Below, piece after piece: positions 8,817 to 58,903 of a stretch of DNA of 64,000 bases. The DNA comes from a virus (Duplodnaviria; Caudoviricetes). The notes under the pieces were generated by a model. It worked only from the letters and a program-made list of their open reading frames with translations, was not told the DNA's origin and searched no databases. Where the stretch lies: the IMG/VR virus record IMGVR_UViG_3300010429_000387, positions 160,001 through 224,000 of that record; one strand, written 5' to 3'. Numbering within the stretch: the stretch's first letter is position 1; each line of letters starts with the position of its first letter. The position numbers and the translations under genes are program-made.

Positions 8817-9541
8817 TGAACCCTCTCGCTTGGAAGACTCGGGTTGCACAGGCGTACCCCTTTGCACCTCAACCTCATCATCCAGGCGTGAGCCCTTCTG
8901 ACACACCCCCGGATGATGCAACTCACGTCATTTGGCAGGACCCGTCGTCCTACGACCCGTTCTTTCATGGACCCCCGTACCTGCCAGGAATGAAGGTCCG
9001 CATGGACAAGGCAGCCTCCTCCCGTTCTATCGTAGCCAAGGTGGTCTCGGCAGCAGGCCCGGACCTGTCCTCGGTTCTTGTGTTCCTCCGGTCCCTCGCC
9101 TTCATCCACCAGAGCCATCACTGGCTGACCTTCGGTGGTGACTACTACGGGGACCACCTGCTCTTCGAGCGTCTGTACGACCAGACCACAGAGGAGATCG
9201 ACCAGATTGCTGAGAAGGCAGTTGGGGTCGGGACCCCTGTTCAGAAGCTCCATCCTGGACTTCAGGCCAGCCTGGTCGCCCAAGTGGTGGCGAGCTTCTG
9301 CGGGAACGGGGTGACAGAAGGAGCGGGGGAGAGCCCCAACTCCTATGTGGAGACCAGCCTGAAGGCCGAAAGGCACTTCATCAACTGCATGAAGCAGATT
9401 GCCGAGGGGCTGAAGGCTACCGGCACACTCTCACGAGGGGTTGATAACCTCCTCGCTGGGATCGAAGACAAGCACGAGGGGCACATCTACCTCCTCGGGC
9501 AACGTTCCAAGGGTGACCCTTGGAAGGCTACCGGGGCCTGA
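8816..9541 (+). CDS. dps: Dps/ferritin-like protein with N-terminal extension
   Basis: HQSHHWLTFGGDYYGDHLLFERLYDQTTEEIDQIAEK matches the Dps ferroxidase signature (HW..G..H..E..D-x-IAE); C-terminal EDKHEGHIYLL. Confidence 0.8.
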   Translation: MNPLAWKTRVAQAYPFAPQPHHPGVSPSDTPPDDATHVIWQDPSSYDPFFHGPPYLPGMKVRMDKAASSRSIVAKVVSAAGPDLSSVLVFLRSLAFIHQSHHWLTFGGDYYGDHLLFERLYDQTTEEIDQIAEKAVGVGTPVQKLHPGLQASLVAQVVASFCGNGVTEGAGESPNSYVETSLKAERHFINCMKQIAEGLKATGTLSRGVDNLLAGIEDKHEGHIYLLGQRSKGDPWKATGA

Positions 9542-9575
9542 TACTCGGCATATCCAGATGAAAAGGAAGACCCAA

Positions 9576-10601
9576 ATGGCAAATGAATCGAACCAGACGT
9601 ATGGCGTCGGGGTGGATGTTGGTACCATGAACATCGTCTCCGCTCGCCAAGAGGGCGGAGTTGTCAAGACCAAGAGGGTGCGGGACGCCTTCATCGACCT
9701 CGAAGTAGAGGCGAAGAAGTCCCTCAAGATGGGGAAGGTCTCCTTCTACGAGGATGAGGACTCCGGTCAGCTCATCGTTCTCGGGGACTCAGCCCTCAAC
9801 ATGGCGAACCTCTTCAAGCGTGAAGTCCGGAGGCCCTTGGCGAAGGGCCTCATCTCTGCCGGGGAGCTAGATGCCCAGCGGGTTCTCTCCAAGCTCATTT
9901 TCAGCGTCCTGGGGGAGCCACTGACCGACAAGGAGCACTGCTACTACAGTGTTCCTGCTGAGCCCATCGACATGATGGACCAGGATGTGGTCTACCACAC
10001 CGAGGTCTTCCGTCAGATCGTGGAGGAGCACGACTACAAGGCTCACCCCATGAATGAGGCCATGGCGATCATCTACAGCCAGTGCCCAGACACCAGCTTT
10101 TCTGGCTTGGCAGTCTCCTTTGGCTCAGGGATGTGCAATGTTGCCCTGTCCTACCAGACGATGATGGGGTTGGACTTCTCCCTGGCCCGAGGTGGGGACT
10201 GGATTGACACCCATGCTGCCAAGGCCATCGGGTCCACGGCCAGTAGGATCTGCTCGCTCAAGGAGCGTGGTGGGTTCGACCTCTCTAGCCCACCAAGGGG
10301 GAATCGGGAGGCTGAGGCCATCTCCCTCTACATTCGTTCCCTCGTCCGGTACTGCCTGGAGAAGATTGCTGAGAAGGTTCGCCGTGAGCGCTCTGGGGCT
10401 GATCTGGAGGAGCCGATCCCCTTCGTTGTCTCAGGTGGGACAACCCTTGCCGAGGGCTTCATGACAGTCTTCCAGGAGGAGTTCCACTCTATCAAGAAGC
10501 GTGGGTTCCCCATTGCCATCTCGGAGGTTCGTCGGGCTAAGGACCCGATGACAGCGGTTGCAGAGGGGCTCCTTGTTCTAGCTATGCAGGAACACGAGTA
10601 A
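9576..10601 (+). CDS. Actin-like ATPase (MreB/ParM/MamK-type fold)
   Basis: Phosphate-1 GVDVGTMNI, YSVP, connect-1 NEAMA, phosphate-2 variant SFGSG, GGDWID, adenosine VVSGGT. RBS AAGGA precedes ATG 9576. Confidence 0.85.
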   Translation: MANESNQTYGVGVDVGTMNIVSARQEGGVVKTKRVRDAFIDLEVEAKKSLKMGKVSFYEDEDSGQLIVLGDSALNMANLFKREVRRPLAKGLISAGELDAQRVLSKLIFSVLGEPLTDKEHCYYSVPAEPIDMMDQDVVYHTEVFRQIVEEHDYKAHPMNEAMAIIYSQCPDTSFSGLAVSFGSGMCNVALSYQTMMGLDFSLARGGDWIDTHAAKAIGSTASRICSLKERGGFDLSSPPRGNREAEAISLYIRSLVRYCLEKIAEKVRRERSGADLEEPIPFVVSGGTTLAEGFMTVFQEEFHSIKKRGFPIAISEVRRAKDPMTAVAEGLLVLAMQEHE

Positions 10602-11819: not shown

Positions 11820-12260
11820 ATGCCCAAGTACGTCTTTGAGTGCCAGACCTGCTCTACACGGTTCGAGCGTACCCTGAAGATGGGGGACCACCCGACTCAG
11901 CCCTGTCCTTCTTGCAAGGAGGATGCCCCTAGACTCTTTGCAGGTAATGGGTTTGGGTTCGGATTCTCTGCCCCTGCCAACGCTGCCCCAGCAAATACAG
12001 GGGTTCACAGTCAGGACTACCCGACTGCTGACCAGATTGTTGGTCGGAGTGCAGAGCAACGGTGGGGAACCTACAACAAGCGGGACGAAGTCAAGAAGAA
12101 GGTGCGTGAAGAGGGCAAGAGCCCAGCCCTGGCTCGCTTGGATGGAGATGGATACACCGAGTATTCGGCTATGGCCCCGGAAGAGCGAGGGGCTAGGGAG
12201 AAACTGGTGGACTATGCCGTCCAGATAGAGAAACAGCCCGAAGCAAAGCCACCCCAATAA
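11820..12260 (+). CDS. FmdB-family zinc-ribbon protein
   Basis: MPKYVFECQTCSTRFE...PCPSCK (MPxYxxxCxxC..CPxC). Confidence 0.8.
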   Translation: MPKYVFECQTCSTRFERTLKMGDHPTQPCPSCKEDAPRLFAGNGFGFGFSAPANAAPANTGVHSQDYPTADQIVGRSAEQRWGTYNKRDEVKKKVREEGKSPALARLDGDGYTEYSAMAPEERGAREKLVDYAVQIEKQPEAKPPQ

Positions 12261-12293
12261 AGTGTTGTTTTGACTTGTGTAGGGTAGAAACCA

Positions 12294-12448
12294 TCCGGTA
12301 CTCGCAGACCGGACACTAGATGTAGATCGACTCAAATCAGATTGCTGCCAGATGGTTGCCCTCTGGGGCCATCACAAACACCGAGGAATTTCCTCGGAAG
12401 ATCAGATCGGATGACATCCCCCAGAACTGATTTGAGGAGAATCGGATG
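12294..12448 (+). promoter_or_regulatory. Structured YAGAY-repeat leader or ncRNA upstream of the sheath gene (element 1)
   Basis: About 12 YRRAY-type pentamers. Hairpins at 12294-12313, 12351-12373 and 12381-12397. Ends at RBS GAGGAG and CGGATG start. Confidence 0.55.
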
Positions 12449-15400
12449 GCCCTCGGACCTTTCTCTACCTACGTACCCCCTGGCGTTTACTCTCGCACCC
12501 TGACCGAAGCGAACGTTGCGGCCCTAGTGGCTGGACTTCGCATCCCCGTGATCATCGGGGTCGGCCAAGAGGAGCTGGAACAGCTCGACCTTGAAATGGT
12601 GCGAGGCTCTTCTTCGACTCTCGATCAGCAGATCGTGAACGAGGATGTGACCCTCCGCTGGATCGTGGACGACACCAACCCCACGAACCCGACCCTTGGT
12701 GCGAACGACGGGACCAAGACCCGGTTCAAGGTTCGCAACTTCCCGTTGGTTGACGGGCAAGGCTTCGGCCGTACCACGAACGATGTCCGGTCTGTGACCG
12801 TGACCGTCGATGGGATCCCGGTGGCCGTTGGATCTGTTCGGGGCTCCTCTGGAGAGGTCATCCTTCAGGTTCCCCCTCCTTCCACGGCAGTGGTCCGATG
12901 CACCTACTTCTTCCATCGTGGTGACACGGCCTTCACGGATGACGTGTCGGACCAGGTCACTGCTACGGCTGCCACGATCATCACCCCTGGCTTCGAGCCC
13001 TACAACATCGTGGCTGGCTCCAACGACACCCTGAAGATCCGGGTGGACGGTGGAGTGGAGTACACGGTGACGTTCCTCCCTGGTTCTGGAACCACGGCGG
13101 CTTCGCTCAAGACCCAGATTGATGCCGGAGTCATTGCCGGGCTGTCTACCTCGGTCTTCGTCGCCAACGACGGAAGCAACCACCTTCAGTTCACGGCCCA
13201 GACCTCTATCGAGATCGGGACCGGAAGTGTCAACGGGATCCTCGGTCTCTCCAATGGGCAGAAGACCTCCCGGAACCAGAGCTTCAGGGTCTACCAGATC
13301 CCGATGGTCGATGGGACCTCTGGGGGCGTTACCACTACCGACCCCTCGAAGGTGGTGGTCAAAGTCAACAACGTCCAGGTGATCCCGACCTCGGTCGATG
13401 GTACTCATGGTCTTGTGACCCTTGGCTTCGCACCCCCTCCAGGGTCGAGCGTGGTCATCACCTACTGGGCCAACACCTGGCAGGACACCTTTGACTACCT
13501 CCCCAACACCCTGGTCACCAACGTCATTCGGGCGGGAATCTCCCCGAACCGTAGCGACTACATCCAGGGCCAGGACTTCGTGGTGAGCAACCCGTCTCCG
13601 GACGTGTCGATCATCCACTGGGGTGCCAGCTACTCCGTCTCCTCGACCCTCAGGACACCCGGTGCTGAGCCTCTGGATGAGTCTCAGATTATCCCGACGA
13701 TGGTGGACGACAAGCTGTGGTTGGCCCCTTGCACGGCCTTCGTGGACACCTCGGTCATCCCGGCCAGGGCAAGCACCACGGTCTTCGTGCTCCCCGAGGT
13801 CCCCACCACAGGGAACGGCCGTGACACGGTTCTCGGGACCCAGACCTACAGCAGCATCGCCAATAGCCGGATGGACCTCGTCACGAACCGTCCGGACCTG
13901 GTGATTGCCCGAGTGGGCAGAACCCTCCGTGATGCCCTCGGTCGCCCAGCGGCCAAGGTGGTTGCGGTGGATGGGTCTTCCAAGAAGATCGTCCTCAAGG
14001 ACCCGCTTCCCCCGGACTGGAACGTGTATGCCACGTTCAACTACAGCCGTCTGGTGGATGACACCTATATCTTCACCAACAAGACCCCAGGCCCCATCGG
14101 CCAGGGTCAGTACGAGGTCTTCTCCTCGCTCTTCAACTCGAACCTCTATCAGGTTCGGTTCGGGAGCAAGGGTGGTGGTCTTGTTGAGACCGTCCAGTGG
14201 CCCCGTGGTGTCGAGCAGGTTCCGGATGCCATGCACGTTGGTGGCACCCCGGTTGGCGAGACCGTGACTGTGACCTTCGGTCAGGCAGCCGCTACGAATG
14301 CGGTGTTCACGAACAAGGGTGCCCAGCCCTTCTCGTTCTACAGCCCTTCTTCGGCTACCTGGAGGACCCTCCTCAACGGGAATCCGGTGGTCAGCACCAA
14401 CCTGGTGACTGCCTCCCGAGCCTACATGGTCAGCAAGCCGGTCAAGCTGTCTGGTGGAGGGAACATCACCATCACCAGTGCCTCGAACGACCTGTTCAAC
14501 CTCACCATCGACGGTGTGGACATCGACGTTTCACTGACCCCCGGAACCAGGACCCCGGCCCAGATCGCTACAGACATCAATGCAGCGATTGATGCCGACC
14601 CGGCCTTCTCCTCGGTCACGAACAACTACATGTGTACGGCAATCCCTGGCCCTGGGACTGGCTACACCTTCTTCGTGATCCGTAGCTACTCGACTCCGGG
14701 TGCTCTCCCTGGTGGCTTCGATCACCAGAGCTACGTCCGGATTCGTCAGGGAACGGCGGAAAGCACTCTCGGGTTCACGACCTTCCAGCGTGCTGACGGT
14801 ACCACGGGTGCAGTCAACAAGCCTGCAACCCTCGTTGGGGCCAATGCGGAGGCTTTCGTCTTCACAAGCGGCCTGAACGATGTGCTCAAGGTCCGGATCA
14901 ATGGGGTGGACTTCCAGGTCACGATCAACCCCTCTTCGACCACGGCAACCCTGGTGGTGGCGGACATCAATGCCGTCATCGCTTCTCAGGGCACTGCCTC
15001 GGTAGGAACTCTGGGCAACCTGAACCACGTCCGTATCACGAGCAACATCAACTCCGAGCAGTCCTCGGTGGTGATCCTCAATGGTTCGGCAAATGCCACT
15101 CTCGGCTTCAGTGAGGGTGACTTCGCCAGCCAGTCTCGGGTCAACGTCCAAGAGGTGGTCAACCGCCTCATGGCTACCCCGAACATTGCAGTCACCTCCT
15201 GGGGTTCTGCTGGAAGCCCTGGAACGGCTCCGACTGCCAACACCACGGGTGCGGTGGTCTACCCGACAACCATCGCTGGGCAGGTCTACTTGACCATCGA
15301 GTCCCTGGTGGTGGGTTCTGCCTCCTCCATCGCCTTCGGGACGGGTGCCAACTCGGCCTTCAACATCCTCACTGGAACCCAGATCACCCCTGGGACCGAT

Positions 15401-16765
15401 GGGGACAATGGGGAAGATGCCACGGACAACTTCGTGGTCACCTCGACCAACCCCTATGGCTCTGCCGGAACGGGCGTCCCTGGGCAGACCTACACGGATG
15501 AGCGCACGGGCCTCAGGTTCACGGTCCTCCCGGCTTCGGGTGGTTCGTACACCTCTGGTGGGCACTTCTCCCTGAACGTCTCCCAGACCTTCGAGGTGAA
15601 CCCTGGGGTCCCCTTCCTGGCAATCCCAGGCTTGGAGACCATCGTGACGAACACGGTCAACGTGGGAGTCAACGACACGGCCAACGTCCAGACCTTCAAC
15701 CCGAGCGGGCTGGAGCCGAAGAACGGGGACTTCTACTTCATCTCCTACCGGTTCCTGAAGCAGGACTACTCGACCAGGATCTACCGTCAGTTCAAGACCA
15801 TCGAGGCGAACTACGGCAAGCTCTCAGCCGAGAACCGGGTCACCCTTGGAGCCTACTTGGCGATCCTCAACGGGGCCGTCCTGGTGGGTGTCAAGCAAGT
15901 CCACAAGGTCCCCAACACGAACCAGGCGTCTGCTCAGGTCTTCATCGACGCCATCAACAACCTCGCAACCCCGCTGCCTGGGAACATCAAGCCTGACCTC
16001 CTGGTCCCCCTCTCGACGGACACAGCGGTCTACTCGTTCCTGACCCAGCATTGCGAGATCATGAGCAACATCCGCAACCAGTCGGAGCGGATGGGCTTCA
16101 TCGGGTTCGCTTCGGGTACCAGCCCCACGAATGCTCAGACGGTGGCCCGTAGCCTCTTCAGCCAGAGGATCGTCGCCTTCTACCCGGACTCGGCAGTCAT
16201 CACCCTCTCGAATGAGCTTGGTGAGACCTTCGAGACCCTGGTGGACGGAACCTTCTTCGCTGCTGCTGCTTCGGGTGCGGTCTGCTCCCCAGCAGTTGAC
16301 GTGGCAACCCCCTACACCCGTCGTCGGATTCAGGGCTTCACCCGGATCCCCCGTATCCTCGACCCGGTGGAAGCCAACCAGACTGCGGTTGCTGGTGTGA
16401 CCCTCCTGGAGGACCTGGACCCCATCGTCCGGATTCGTCAGGGCCTCACGACCAACATGACCTCGGTCCTCACCCGTCTCCCGACGGTCACCCAGATTGC
16501 TGACTATGTCAGCATCAACAGCCGCTCGGTCCTCGATGCCTTCGTCGGGACCAAGTTCCTGTCGAGCCGGACCAATGAAGTCGAGGTCTCGATGACCTCG
16601 CTCTTCAACCAGCTCATCCAGCAGGAGATCGTGGCTGCCTTCACGGGTATCTCGGCAGTCATCGACCCAGAGGATCCCACGATTCTCCGTGCCGAAGCCT
16701 ACTACCAGCCGATCTTCCCGCTCCTGTACCTGGTCCTCACGTTCAACCTGCGTGCCCGGATCTGA
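12446..16765 (+). CDS. Tail sheath protein (1439 aa) with multiple inserted domains
   Basis: N-terminal YVPPGVYSRT..IPVIIG. C-terminal sheath domain ERMGFIG..RIVAFYP..VRIRQGLTT..DAFVG..YYQPIFPLLYLVLTFNL. Confidence 0.9.
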   Translation: MALGPFSTYVPPGVYSRTLTEANVAALVAGLRIPVIIGVGQEELEQLDLEMVRGSSSTLDQQIVNEDVTLRWIVDDTNPTNPTLGANDGTKTRFKVRNFPLVDGQGFGRTTNDVRSVTVTVDGIPVAVGSVRGSSGEVILQVPPPSTAVVRCTYFFHRGDTAFTDDVSDQVTATAATIITPGFEPYNIVAGSNDTLKIRVDGGVEYTVTFLPGSGTTAASLKTQIDAGVIAGLSTSVFVANDGSNHLQFTAQTSIEIGTGSVNGILGLSNGQKTSRNQSFRVYQIPMVDGTSGGVTTTDPSKVVVKVNNVQVIPTSVDGTHGLVTLGFAPPPGSSVVITYWANTWQDTFDYLPNTLVTNVIRAGISPNRSDYIQGQDFVVSNPSPDVSIIHWGASYSVSSTLRTPGAEPLDESQIIPTMVDDKLWLAPCTAFVDTSVIPARASTTVFVLPEVPTTGNGRDTVLGTQTYSSIANSRMDLVTNRPDLVIARVGRTLRDALGRPAAKVVAVDGSSKKIVLKDPLPPDWNVYATFNYSRLVDDTYIFTNKTPGPIGQGQYEVFSSLFNSNLYQVRFGSKGGGLVETVQWPRGVEQVPDAMHVGGTPVGETVTVTFGQAAATNAVFTNKGAQPFSFYSPSSATWRTLLNGNPVVSTNLVTASRAYMVSKPVKLSGGGNITITSASNDLFNLTIDGVDIDVSLTPGTRTPAQIATDINAAIDADPAFSSVTNNYMCTAIPGPGTGYTFFVIRSYSTPGALPGGFDHQSYVRIRQGTAESTLGFTTFQRADGTTGAVNKPATLVGANAEAFVFTSGLNDVLKVRINGVDFQVTINPSSTTATLVVADINAVIASQGTASVGTLGNLNHVRITSNINSEQSSVVILNGSANATLGFSEGDFASQSRVNVQEVVNRLMATPNIAVTSWGSAGSPGTAPTANTTGAVVYPTTIAGQVYLTIESLVVGSASSIAFGTGANSAFNILTGTQITPGTDGDNGEDATDNFVVTSTNPYGSAGTGVPGQTYTDERTGLRFTVLPASGGSYTSGGHFSLNVSQTFEVNPGVPFLAIPGLETIVTNTVNVGVNDTANVQTFNPSGLEPKNGDFYFISYRFLKQDYSTRIYRQFKTIEANYGKLSAENRVTLGAYLAILNGAVLVGVKQVHKVPNTNQASAQVFIDAINNLATPLPGNIKPDLLVPLSTDTAVYSFLTQHCEIMSNIRNQSERMGFIGFASGTSPTNAQTVARSLFSQRIVAFYPDSAVITLSNELGETFETLVDGTFFAAAASGAVCSPAVDVATPYTRRRIQGFTRIPRILDPVEANQTAVAGVTLLEDLDPIVRIRQGLTTNMTSVLTRLPTVTQIADYVSINSRSVLDAFVGTKFLSSRTNEVEVSMTSLFNQLIQQEIVAAFTGISAVIDPEDPTILRAEAYYQPIFPLLYLVLTFNLRARI

Positions 16766-19233: not shown

Positions 19234-19289
19234 TTGATGCTCTTTGGTTGGGGGTTCTTTCTATGAGCCCCCACTGAAGATACCTGGAG

Positions 19290-26240: not shown

Positions 26241-26250
26241 TGGCTGAGAT

Positions 26251-26416
26251 AGGCCCCCTTCAAGGAGGGGGCCTTAGATGAGATTGGACATGCGGCAACG
26301 GATGTAGATGTAGAAGTATCAGATCAGACCCAGATTGTTCCCTCACTCTCCCCGCTTGGTCCTCTGGGCGGGGAGGCTAGATCGGACCCCCGAACTAGAT
26401 GGGATGTAGATGTACA
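26251..26416 (+). promoter_or_regulatory. Structured YAGAY-repeat element or ncRNA after the tube gene (element 2)
   Basis: Hairpins at 26251-26274 and 26348-26375, with about 15 AGAT/GGAT/AGAC-type pentamers in the unpaired stretches. Confidence 0.55.
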
Positions 26417-26479
26417 CATTCACCTCTGCCGTCACCGCTGTCCTTCTCCACCACAACCCCAAACTGGTAGGGTGCGAGA

Positions 26480-27661
26480 ATGGCAAAGTTGCAAGCGAAG
26501 AAGATCACCGAAGCTCTCAAGAAGGCCCAGCGAGTAGGAGAGGTAGAGGTTTCGTTCACCGTTGCTGACTGCAACGTAGTGCTCAGGAGTCTCCGACCTG
26601 AGGAGTATGAAGCCGCTATGCAAGCGGCTCAGGAGTTCGAGGAACTCCAGTACATCAACGCCTTCAAGCGGGAGCACATCTCCCGTGCCGTCTGCGAAAT
26701 CAACGGAGAGTCTCTCCGTGAGTATGATTTCGTGGAGGTGGACGTTGAGGAAACGGACCCTCGAACAGGCAAGGTTTCAACCAAGACTGTAGCCTTGGAA
26801 CGGCATCAGTTCGTCTCCGAGTACATCTTGGCAACCTGGTCTCGGGAAGTCATCGACACCACCTTCCGGAAGTTCAACGAGGTGGTAGCCAAGTCTGAGA
26901 AGGCTTCCACTGAAGGGGTTGAGTTCACCATCCCCGATGAGACCCCGGAGGAGAAGTACCGCCGTCTGCTCATCGAGGCCAAGGAGATTGAAGGGCAAAT
27001 CCCCTTCGAGCTGGTTGGTCGGATCCTGGACGAGGTGGGGTATATGTCCCGGTCGTCCAAGGGTGAGTTGGAAGGGGTCGATCAGAAGCTCGCCCAGGTG
27101 GCGGAGGAGATCCCCCCTGGAGAGGTTCCCGAACCCCAGCCAGTCCCGGTAGCAGCCCCTCAGAGGGCTCCGGTTCGAGCACAAGCTCCAAGCCACCAGG
27201 CACCAGCAAACCCCCCTCAGGAGGCCCCTGAAGTGCCCCTGGCCCGCCCGGTGCGCCCCAACCTCCCTCCGGAGCTTCAGCATCCCGATCCCGAGGTGCT
27301 CATGAGGAGCCGGAAGCCTCTGAACCAGGTGGCCTCCCCGGTTCCCCAACCACCCCAGGCTCAGGTCCCCCAGGCGACTCAGCCCGCCCAGCCCCCTCCG
27401 GCAATGCAGGCCCGCCCGGTCATCCCAGCCACTCCGGCAGCCCTTCGTAGGGCTCAGGAGATCGAGGCGATGGAGCAGCAGGCAGCTCTTCCAGATGACC
27501 CAACTCCTCCCCCCATCCAGGGTGGAACCAGGTTGGCCGAAGGCATCCCTGAGTTGGCCGAGAACATCGCCAAGGTCAACCCTCAGGCAGCCGAACGGAT
27601 CTTCGAGCAGCCCCCGGTTGCAGGGATCAACCCCAGGTTCAAAGCCCCCCCACGTCTTTGA
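26480..27661 (+). CDS. Tail assembly chaperone 1 with Pro/Gln-rich C-terminus
   Basis: Position after the tube gene; VVLRSLRPEE..ISRAVCEING..ILATW..VIDTTF chaperone-like pattern. Confidence 0.55.
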   Translation: MAKLQAKKITEALKKAQRVGEVEVSFTVADCNVVLRSLRPEEYEAAMQAAQEFEELQYINAFKREHISRAVCEINGESLREYDFVEVDVEETDPRTGKVSTKTVALERHQFVSEYILATWSREVIDTTFRKFNEVVAKSEKASTEGVEFTIPDETPEEKYRRLLIEAKEIEGQIPFELVGRILDEVGYMSRSSKGELEGVDQKLAQVAEEIPPGEVPEPQPVPVAAPQRAPVRAQAPSHQAPANPPQEAPEVPLARPVRPNLPPELQHPDPEVLMRSRKPLNQVASPVPQPPQAQVPQATQPAQPPPAMQARPVIPATPAALRRAQEIEAMEQQAALPDDPTPPPIQGGTRLAEGIPELAENIAKVNPQAAERIFEQPPVAGINPRFKAPPRL

Positions 27662-57736: not shown

Positions 57737-58903
57737 ATGGGCGTAGCGACTTGCCAGTTCACACAAGGGAGTAGTGTAGGCGGGAGCGGGAAATCAGTTT
57801 TCGGCTTCCAGTCTGGCGTTTCCGTCACCATGACGGATGACGGTGGCCCAGGTGCGACCTCGTACCAGTGGGAACTCCTTTCGTGGCCTGCTCCACTCGC
57901 TGTCCCCCCAGTCATCACTGACGAAACCCTTCAGGTGGCGACCATCACGCCAACCCTGGATGGGGTCTACATCGTCAAGCTGACAAGGACCGAAGGTGCC
58001 ACGGTCACCACCGACTACAAGTTCTTCGGGGTGGCTGACGAAGACGGACTGACTCTGCCCTCAGCGGGTCAGTCCGGGCACATGACCAACCAGACCACGG
58101 AGACACAGAAGACTGGGTGGGCTGGTAGGGCCAATGCCACTACGAACTTCCAACTCGATGCTTACCTCCGGTTCCTCAAGTCTCGGGTTGGAAGGTATGT
58201 AGGGCACACTCTAGTCATCCCGCACACTGGAACCCACACGACGGTTCAGGTCCAGGATGGGGTGAGTAAGCCCTTCCGGATCATCACGGCCTCGGGAGGC
58301 TCTGGGCTCTACACTGAGGAGCTGGTGATCCCAGCTACCGAGGGGCAGCGGATCCGCTATCTTGTGAGCCTCACAACGGGAGCGGGTGGGGTCAGGATGC
58401 TGAACGGGGTTGGTGGGTCCATAGTCCTGGACCTCCCGGCCCCTCCTTCGGGGACAGTCACCTATGAGGCTGAGTTCGTCTCCGATGGGACCAACTGGAA
58501 CCTCTCCCGAAGCACGGTTGTTGGTCAGAAGTCTCAGTTTCGTAGCCGGGACATCGACTTCGTGGCTGGCCTCAAGACGACCGATCAGACGATCCCGACC
58601 CGAATAGGTTCCGCTCGGATCAACACCAGTGACTTCCCTGACAACACGGAGTTCCGCTTCGTTGTTCAGATTGAGGTCACTGTGGGCCGAAGAGCCTACA
58701 TTCAGGTGTACGACCTGACCGGAGGGGACTACGTTGGCACGTCCCTGACTACGAACATCGAGACTCCAACTCAACTGGAGCAGGTCCTTTCACTCCCTTC
58801 TGGCACGAGGGACTATGAGGTCCTGCTCTGGCAAGGTTCCCCTGGTGGCCCCGCTGACAGGGTAACGTGTACCAGTGCCAAGATTGTAGCAAAGTGGGGC
58901 TGA
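57737..58903 (+). CDS. Tail fibre-associated protein with N-terminal PKD-like domain
   Basis: TSYQWEL..ATITPTLDGVYIVKLT (PKD-like), followed by beta-rich domains. Confidence 0.6.
   Translation: MGVATCQFTQGSSVGGSGKSVFGFQSGVSVTMTDDGGPGATSYQWELLSWPAPLAVPPVITDETLQVATITPTLDGVYIVKLTRTEGATVTTDYKFFGVADEDGLTLPSAGQSGHMTNQTTETQKTGWAGRANATTNFQLDAYLRFLKSRVGRYVGHTLVIPHTGTHTTVQVQDGVSKPFRIITASGGSGLYTEELVIPATEGQRIRYLVSLTTGAGGVRMLNGVGGSIVLDLPAPPSGTVTYEAEFVSDGTNWNLSRSTVVGQKSQFRSRDIDFVAGLKTTDQTIPTRIGSARINTSDFPDNTEFRFVVQIEVTVGRRAYIQVYDLTGGDYVGTSLTTNIETPTQLEQVLSLPSGTRDYEVLLWQGSPGGPADRVTCTSAKIVAKWG

Follow-up and report, generated by a model that had tools for sequence, protein, structure and literature searches.

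A strand-specific, phased array of a short word in the leaders of the tail sheath gene and other virion operons of a megaphage clade

The 185-nucleotide (nt) intergenic gap (12261-12445) that separates an FmdB-family gene from the tail sheath gene of an uncultured giant phage carries two runs of a short word repeated every 5-6 nt on one strand. The gap lies in a 64,000-nt stretch of DNA (bases 160001-224000, the window, in whose numbering positions are given unless marked as genome) of the IMG/VR record IMGVR_UViG_3300010429_000387, a 407,078-bp sequence with direct terminal repeats, and every large gene of the window is on the + strand. The arrays are real, strand-specific and beyond what chance and composition would give. 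Our preferred, though tentative, reading, which we hold at somewhat less than even confidence, is that the sheath 5' leader serves as a platform for a multivalent single-strand RNA binder that would tune the translation or stability of late virion mRNAs.

All twelve pentamers that a first-pass annotation of the window had placed in this leader are found there: CAGAC (12305), CGGAC (12310), TAGAT (12317 and 12323), CAAAT (12333), CAGAT (12338 and 12349), CAAAC (12375), AAGAT (12398), CAGAT (12403), CGGAT (12408) and CGGAT (12443), the last overlapping the ATG at 12446. The leader holds two runs:

12317..12353, + strand: array A, made of UAGAU-G-UAGAU (12317, 12323), CAAAU-CAGAU (12333, 12338) and CAGAU (12349).
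12398..12412, + strand: array B, AAGAU-CAGAU-CGGAU at a spacing of 5 nt, the array ending 33 nt before the AUG.

Within the gap YAGAY occurs six times on the + strand and not at all on the - strand, against 0.58 expected from its frequency in the window and a mean of 1.16 when the gap was shuffled 5000 times with its dinucleotides preserved (P=2e-4). Four pairs of units stand in tandem at 5-6 nt, where the shuffles average 0.17 and never gave as many as four. Over the whole 407-kb genome and both strands, at least three tandem pairs per 150 nt are found only in the sheath gap and at 26241-26479 of the window; a third place, at genome 158392 just upstream of the window, reaches six YAGAY per 150 nt.

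The first-pass annotation had tied its reading to conservation in relatives, which was checked by collecting the syntenic leaders. Homologues of the sheath N-terminus led to 80 IMG/VR loci, and the leader set consists of 60 non-identical gaps of at least 90 nt; more than 100 stretches homologous to the sheath matched, with full-length open reading frames of 1403-1547 amino acids (aa). The sequence of these 60 leaders is mostly unalignable beyond close relatives and the word is nevertheless retained, with sense/antisense counts of 114/7 for CAGAT, 68/1 for CAGATC, 56/2 for CCAGAT and 221/42 for AGAT, a bias that agrees with the strand-specificity claimed at the outset and seen in the window. 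The runs are kept in more than 90 related giant-phage sequences. The spacing from one unit to the next has a sharp peak at 5 nt (75 cases) and 6 nt (99 cases), and the last tandem unit ends at a median of 33 nt before the AUG, the same distance as that of array B, with 24/55 leaders at 28-34 nt and none below 25 nt. An unseeded expectation-maximisation (EM) motif search, started from a flat matrix in 58 leaders, gave the consensus [C/U]-C-A-[G/A]-A-[U/C]-C (YCARAUC) at ~360 sites, or ~6 per leader, in which the A-R-A-U core is the most informative part and C precedes A-R at 68%. The YAGAY first proposed was therefore right as a conserved, multi-copy short word, but the consensus is wider and differently centred.

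Among near-identical relatives (L017, L018, L023, L089) the leaders are identical, and one member of the clade (L056) no longer has the array. L033 has GGAU in place of the AGAU of other leaders, and head leaders have a hexamer ending in G, UAGAUG. Counted over five whole related genomes, unit dimers show no enrichment over a reversed-pattern control, only local clusters being conspicuous. The coding sense strands of the phage do not avoid single units, which points to a function that resides in the array rather than in one word. In those strands CAGAT occurs 357 times against 300 in synonymous-codon shuffles (z +5.2), and the looser YARAY is not over-represented. One further YAGAY run, in L094 (G001:C1:18700-20500, minus strand), is a ~19-nt repeat (UAGAUGAUUCAGUAACCG...) that apparently lies within coding sequence and is a false positive for simple pattern scans.

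The sheath leader (element 1) heads one of four array-led operons; the others comprise the decoration protein and major capsid protein, a DUF5659 protein followed by neck genes, and a tail-assembly-chaperone-like gene. The octamer TAGATGTA has six + strand copies in the genome, five of which are within these four leaders. The three further leaders are:

26241..26479, + strand: element 2, a paralogous leader preceding a 393-aa gene, its array counting 8 YAGAY and 5 tandem pairs.
genome 158411: DUF5659 leader, an array ahead of the 84-aa DUF5659 gene, then neck-region genes.
genome 132416: head-operon leader, a hairpin and then UAGAUGUAGAUGAAGAUG, ahead of a 207-aa gene and the major capsid protein gene.

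The copies at the decoration/major-capsid operon and at the DUF5659 gene are weaker than the sheath leader and element 2. Beyond the units, elements 1 and 2 have a common core, GAUGUAGAU..AUCAGAU..CCAGAU.GUU.CC..AGAUCGGA..CCCCC.GAAC. The head-operon array is present in ~45 distinct relatives (sense/antisense 45/2 for TAGAT and 31/1 for TAGATG), the DUF5659 and chaperone-like leaders are conserved at matching relative positions in two other complete or near-complete genomes, and the chaperone-like array leader is also conserved ahead of homologues in L005-L011. The major capsid protein was identified through PF05065 and phrog_2522 (2e-52). The 393-aa protein has a weak Foldseek match, via its N-domain, to the HK97 tail assembly chaperone 2ob9 (prob 0.69), and PDB sequence and profile searches with it were without match. 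This protein (26480-27661) has a confident N-terminal domain of ~145 aa; the long tail behind it is rich in proline and of low confidence, and carries short conserved motifs at its C-terminus (PELS..RVNP..AERIFEQPPVAGINPRFR). The 84-aa DUF5659 protein (genome 158478-158732; L100:979-1233; match 8e-10) is small, late and strongly conserved (76-80% identical in two related genomes), and has its own YARAY array leader.

The runs are interleaved with hairpins and followed by the initiation region, which includes the Shine-Dalgarno (SD) sequence:

12294..12313, + strand: hairpin 1, UCCGGU/ACCGGA with an 8-nt loop, holding CAGAC 12305 and CGGAC 12310 (-8.7 kcal/mol, z -3.1).
12344..12369, + strand: weak hairpin 2, containing CCUCUGGG at 12360-12367 (z -0.15, not significant).
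12381..12397, + strand: hairpin 3, CCGAGGA-AUU-UCCUCGG (-11.1 kcal/mol, z -4.2).
12427..12449, + strand: translation initiation region, with CUGAUUUGAG (12427-12436), the SD sequence GAGGAG (12434-12439) and the AUG (12446).

Of three hairpins originally reported, two are thus locally significant (z -3.1 and z -4.2). The one with CCTCTGGG (12360-12367) falls short of significance (z -0.15), takes the CAGAU unit at 12349 into its pairing and is not conserved among relatives. The CCGG...CCGG of hairpin 1 is retained in close relatives, and in L012 a hairpin is retained at the position of hairpin 3 with GG/CC replaced by AG/CU. A compact structured RNA was considered and rejected, since the whole-leader fold has a z of -0.49 in sense and -0.82 in antisense and hence no sense-strand preference. 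Nor did a hairpin just before the first unit prove to be a defining feature: in sheath leaders it averages -8.97 kcal/mol against -8.92 kcal/mol for random coding 40-mers, and in head leaders it is marginally stronger than such 40-mers (p=0.04). With fold z near zero and hairpins before the sheath arrays not above background, the "structured RNA" part of the first-pass annotation is weak.

Long-range pairing involves the start of the sheath gene. In both the centroid and the minimum-energy folds CUCAAAUCAG (12331-12340, inside array A) pairs with CUGAUUUGAG, which overlaps the SD, and CCAUCCGG (12291-12298) pairs with UCGGAUGG (12442-12449) across the start codon as an alternative to hairpin 1. 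The duplex between array and pre-SD segment has a z of -4.1 in the window. Read by eye, the long-range pairing is retained in L013, L015 and L025 with A-U to G-U or G-C changes, and in L015 and L026 with CUCAU/AUGAG in the place of CCAUCC/GGAUGG. The pairing over the initiation region is convincing in the window and its closest relatives. As a general mechanism, array pairing with the pre-SD segment was rejected at a family mean duplex z of -0.69, and it is kept as a subclade feature only. At the end of the chaperone-like leader (26432-26485; L005-L011, L097, L098) a hairpin pairs the purine-rich region of the ribosome-binding site (RBS) and the AUG, and this same hairpin is formed from two unrelated sequence pairs, CUUCUCCACC/GGUGCGAGAA and UCAUCCUCA/UGAGGAUGA, in different relatives. 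The covariation was read by eye, the MAFFT alignment being too poorly registered for pair counting; it looks like compensatory evolution, and two pairs forming one hairpin are good evidence for what would be RNA-level control at the chaperone-like leaders.

At the 5' edge of the sheath leader, overlapping the end of the upstream gene, stands a promoter-like box:

12255..12285, + strand: 5' box CAATAAAGTGTTGTTTTGACTTGTGTAGGG, a pyrimidine-rich tract plus TGTAG that resembles boxes ahead of other late genes.

In sheath leaders this box is kept at the 5' edge, even when clear of the stop codon, as a pyrimidine-rich tract plus TGTAG/TGTAC, often with CAATAA before it. A related box is present in head leaders L104 and L105, and similar Y-rich+TTGTAG/CTATGAG boxes lie in other late gaps. 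It was rejected as a genome-wide promoter, the strict pattern being without a further genome copy and only the looser Y-rich+TTGTAG class recurring. Transcription probably starts just downstream of the box, and the arrays are in all likelihood transcribed, because a conserved promoter-like box lies 5' of them and the upstream gene is co-oriented. Action as RNA is favoured by the orientation of the arrays, which is always that of the downstream gene, by the free mixing of 5- and 6-nt spacings, which suits a flexible single strand better than double-stranded DNA sites, by a position tied to the AUG and by the separate 5' box. Elsewhere in the genome a motif GGTTGAAA-N17-(c)gTTGTAG recurs ahead of genes on either strand, for the most part away from the structural block (genome 27486, 55171, 76067, 78924, 282475, 344186, 371658 and 406721, outside the window), and is probably an early or host-type promoter of the phage. 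A near-identical box, GGTTC(T/A)TTCTATGAGCCC(C)AC, is found at ~19250-19275 before a UvrD-like helicase gene and also at genome ~252310, at one other late gene; the looser Y-rich+TTGTAG/CTTATAG class, including the TTCTATGAGCCC box, may be the late promoter.

The leader is flanked by the following genes:

11820..12260, + strand: upstream gene, a 146-aa FmdB-family CxxC...CxxC zinc-ribbon protein (Pfam PF09723, 7e-10; TIGR02605, 8e-11).
12446..16765, + strand: downstream gene, encoding a tail sheath protein of 1439 aa that carries large insertions (identified by tblastn of its last 400 residues).

By homology to annotated sheaths the 1439-aa product is a tail sheath, as the gene had been labelled from the start: tblastn of the C-terminal 400 aa matched the tail sheath of Tunturiibacter phage Tunturi_5 (4e-42), Bacillus phage G gp178 (2e-26) and the tail sheaths of Myrna, Phabba and Finch (~1e-11), several of the matches being actinophages. 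No Pfam sheath domain scored on the protein, PDB sequence and profile searches were without match, and the AlphaFold model of the sheath C-terminus was unusable (predicted local distance difference test score, pLDDT, 38). An FmdB-type gene lies directly 5' of the leader and sheath gene in most relatives, and MPKYxFEC..C..RFER N-termini open ~50/66 of their distinct upstream frames. The genome also has a second FmdB zinc-ribbon gene, a paralogue with a stronger match (7e-16; genome 65422-65544), and amid the neck and tail genes of the window a 386-aa protein (9441-10601) strongly matches the Volactin actin-like family (PF25216, 6e-66).

A specific word in many copies, phased, retained in sense only, placed 5' of the ribosome footprint and present at several operons is best fitted by a multivalent single-strand RNA-binding factor. 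The active part would be no fold but the two runs of phased, single-stranded YCARAUC, with a unit every 5-6 nt and ~6-12 copies per leader, split by variable hairpins, and these runs would form a multivalent landing platform for a factor, encoded by phage or host, that binds single-stranded RNA as an oligomer or cooperatively. From its place ~15-20 nt before the SD, such a factor would set ribosome access and/or mRNA lifetime, and would so co-ordinate how much is made of those structural proteins that are needed most. The first run is predicted, here and in the closest relatives, to pair with the segment 5' of the SD, and the CAUCC box with the start codon, so that binding of the factor could free the initiation region, which we propose as a route to activation.

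The reader of the arrays would be a protein. The FmdB-type zinc-ribbon protein is a candidate only, on the grounds of where its gene lies and of a parallel with zinc proteins known to bind the leaders of phages. T4 gp32 is one of these (PMC3014915). Mu Com is another, and a permissive Pfam scan of the zinc-ribbon protein returned no Com. The small DUF5659 protein, with an array leader of its own, is a second candidate. It is also conceivable, although we think it improbable, that a megaphage post-transcriptional virion regulon exists, in which one oligomeric single-strand RNA-binding protein reads the arrays on the head, neck, sheath and tail-chaperone leaders and couples their translation; this would give a first assigned function to the FmdB zinc-ribbon or DUF5659 protein and a TRAP-like mechanism on a different fold.

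Several observations weigh against an RNA platform of this kind. Searches of the phage genome for CsrA, TRAP, Hfq, S1, S21 and cold-shock domains found none, TrpBP (PF02081) had no match at E up to 1 in a search of the phage genome alone, and a literature search on RNA binding by FmdB found no demonstrated case. The cultured relative Tunturi_5 has a homologous, degenerate leader with ~2 units (CCGGACC-UUAGAUG..., AAGAUC), and the sheath leader of the more distant huge phage LR745208 has no array units, so the arrays are dispensable for sheath expression as such. Units are paired with a mean probability of 0.50 against 0.56 for the rest of the 58 related leaders; the "mostly unpaired" motif of the earlier description thus holds only weakly, and several units are paired in the minimum-energy fold of the window. 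Anti-units adjoin the SD in only ~11/58 leaders, the SD of sheath leaders is unpaired with a probability of 0.388 against 0.424 in shuffled controls (p=0.04), and head leaders show no RBS-accessibility effect against shuffled controls. The transcription start and RNA-level action are moreover things that we infer, and ATGTAGAT inside the arrays has TGTAG in common with the phage promoter-like motif TTGAAA-N17-TTGTAG, and some of the signal may thus stem from a promoter element in the DNA. The "undescribed translational-control leader" of the first-pass annotation is a fair reading of a conserved, strand-specific multi-copy array, without an Rfam match, that stands in the leader of a highly expressed gene at a position set by the start codon, but control is the part that we infer. 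The "sponge RNA" offered beside it finds no support, all copies being cis leaders directly before open reading frames and nothing pointing to a free-standing RNA.

The arrays come right up to the initiation region on its 5' side (at a median of 33 nt from the AUG and never below 25 nt) and precede the most abundant structural genes, a placement that would also suit a ribosome standby site or translational enhancer without a dedicated regulator, whose open, G-poor tracts 5' of the 30S footprint, perhaps via S1, would let ribosomal subunits await opening of a partly structured RBS and so secure a high yield of the commonest virion proteins. The RBS-hiding helices of the window and the chaperone-like leaders fit such a site, as does the failure to find known binder domains encoded by the phage, and S1 or cold-shock proteins have been proposed for the comparable TAACTGA leader repeats (PMC4679880). 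Openness alone, however, leaves the specific seven-position word, its invariant A, the fixed phasing and the sense-only retention unexplained; the units are barely less paired than their flanks, and RBS occlusion, clear in the window and the chaperone-like leaders, is weak or absent in most leaders, the family-wide difference being small. We consider standby without a regulator unlikely.

Entry sites for RNA processing or decay are slightly more doubtful. RNase E/G prefers single-stranded RN↓WUU, an older formulation from the 9S/RNA I site being ACAG(A/U)AUUUG, and the units (A-R-A↓U-C or A-R↓A-U) loosely resemble this preference. Cleavage would divide long late transcripts into separate mRNAs for the sheath, the capsid and others; the downstream product would keep a short leader protected by the ribosome, and the upstream one would have a 3' end capped by a hairpin. 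Consistent with this, the genes on either side of the arrays are co-oriented, a hairpin often stands immediately 5' of the array (median gap 2-4 nt; 96% of head leaders at 6 nt or less), the minimum distance to the AUG, 25-34 nt, would make the remaining leader about as long as a ribosome footprint, and the T4 gene 32 leader has conserved RNase E cuts that are used in this way (PMC3014915). The flanking pyrimidines and the C after U nevertheless fall outside the RNase E preference, independent cut sites have no need of 5-6 nt phasing, the units are not avoided in phage coding sense strands (CAGAT z = +5.2, as above), and the hairpins before sheath arrays are no stronger than background.

We give equally little credence to action at the level of DNA, as reiterated late-promoter or activator sites, for instance a TGTAGAT-type -10-like word for a phage sigma-like factor or the sites of a zinc-finger late activator. 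P2 Ogr is a zinc-finger late activator with four late promoters; here exactly four virion operons bear the element, five of the six + strand copies of TAGATGTA lie within their leaders, TGTAG is common to the arrays and the general promoter-like motif, a zinc-ribbon gene adjoins, and sigma-70 region 2 is weakly matched at genome 58723. That match (58723-58827) is sub-threshold and lies inside a 424-aa frame. Against DNA sites, the units have no dyad symmetry and the mixing of 5 and 6 bp would rotate neighbouring double-stranded sites by ~35 degrees; distant relatives retain CAGAUC runs without TGTAG; the arrays reach within ~15-20 nt of the conserved SD, so that there is no room for a promoter in between; and a separate promoter-like box is already present 5' of the arrays. 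GAUC(CAG) could in principle pair with the 3' tail of 16S rRNA, but this reading was set aside, GAUC being present in only about half of the units.

To our knowledge, gene regulation in uncultured megaphages is almost undescribed. The array is a simple, computer-scorable cis-signal of the major virion operons in more than 90 huge-phage sequences that calls for no protein annotation, and it could aid the annotation of late operons and their starts as well as provide a handle for a search for the trans-factor. It also opens the question of whether capsid and tail stoichiometry is co-ordinated post-transcriptionally in giant phages, and if the reader were the adjacent FmdB zinc-ribbon or the DUF5659 protein, a widespread family without a function would gain a role.

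With the whole window searched against Rfam 15 at gathering thresholds there were no matches, and elements 1 and 2 at E up to 10 gave only sub-threshold chance matches; a literature search on CAGAU arrays and phage late-leader repeats found no prior description. The nearest likeness in layout is to the TRAP sites of Bacillus (trp leader, trpG, yhaG), in which 11 (G/U)AG triplets with 2-3 nt spacers are arranged round an 11-mer ring (PMC3913778). Both have a single-stranded, strand-specific, multi-copy word with a 5-6 nt period in a 5' leader, and competing pairings near the initiation region. The phage word, however, is YCARAUC, with its core in A-R-A-U rather than NAG and C favoured before the core, whereas TRAP disfavours CAG; variants such as CAAAU, CGAAU and CGGAU lack AG at the triplet position. 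The phage units also come in runs of 2-4 split by hairpins rather than in one continuous run of 11, and they stand on virion operons rather than in amino-acid control.

CsrA/RsmA GGA-motif leaders and CsrB-type sponge RNAs likewise use multivalent short motifs to control translation initiation. In the phage, GGA in hairpin loops is not the conserved feature, GGA being confined to the minority CGGAU/CGGAC units, and the leaders have a core of ARAU in place of multiple A(N)GGA with one over the SD. A CsrA dimer would need neighbouring units set wider than the 5-6 nt seen here, and no free-standing sponge gene accompanies them. The first-pass remark that the motif differs from both the GGA repeats of CsrB and the (G/U)AG repeats of TRAP is in line with these comparisons.

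In the T4 gene 32 operator a 5' pseudoknot is followed by an unstructured tract with UUAA(A) repeats that overlap the RBS, and gp32, a zinc protein, coats it cooperatively (PMC3014915). The phage leader similarly has a structured 5' element and then repeated single-stranded words toward the RBS, with a zinc-protein gene associated; no pseudoknot was found in it, no search aimed at pseudoknots having been made. The T4 operator, in contrast, is autogenous, A+U-rich and serves one gene, whereas the phage element serves four operons with another word, and its runs stop ~30 nt before the AUG (minimum 25 nt) and do not overlap the RBS.

Tandem sense-strand words just before start codons, with a suggested translational role, are also known from bacterial 5' leaders, as the TAACTGA heptamer repeats of Beggiatoaceae and Cyanobacteria and the (AGAT)n tract of Moraxella catarrhalis uspA2, which has AGAT in common with the phage word (PMC4679880). 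Those repeats are perfect and microsatellite-like, with a period of 7 or 4 and a copy number that varies between strains, whereas the phage units are imperfect (CAGAU, UAGAU, CAAAU, CGAAU, CGGAU), mix spacings of 5 and 6 and form interrupted runs. Near-identical relatives have the same leaders, and the motif is kept across deep divergence, not by slippage. Set beside these systems, the arrays are a previously undescribed family of cis-elements of a megaphage clade, real and conserved and of the multivalent leader-motif kind, for which the mechanism proposed above is the one that we put forward.

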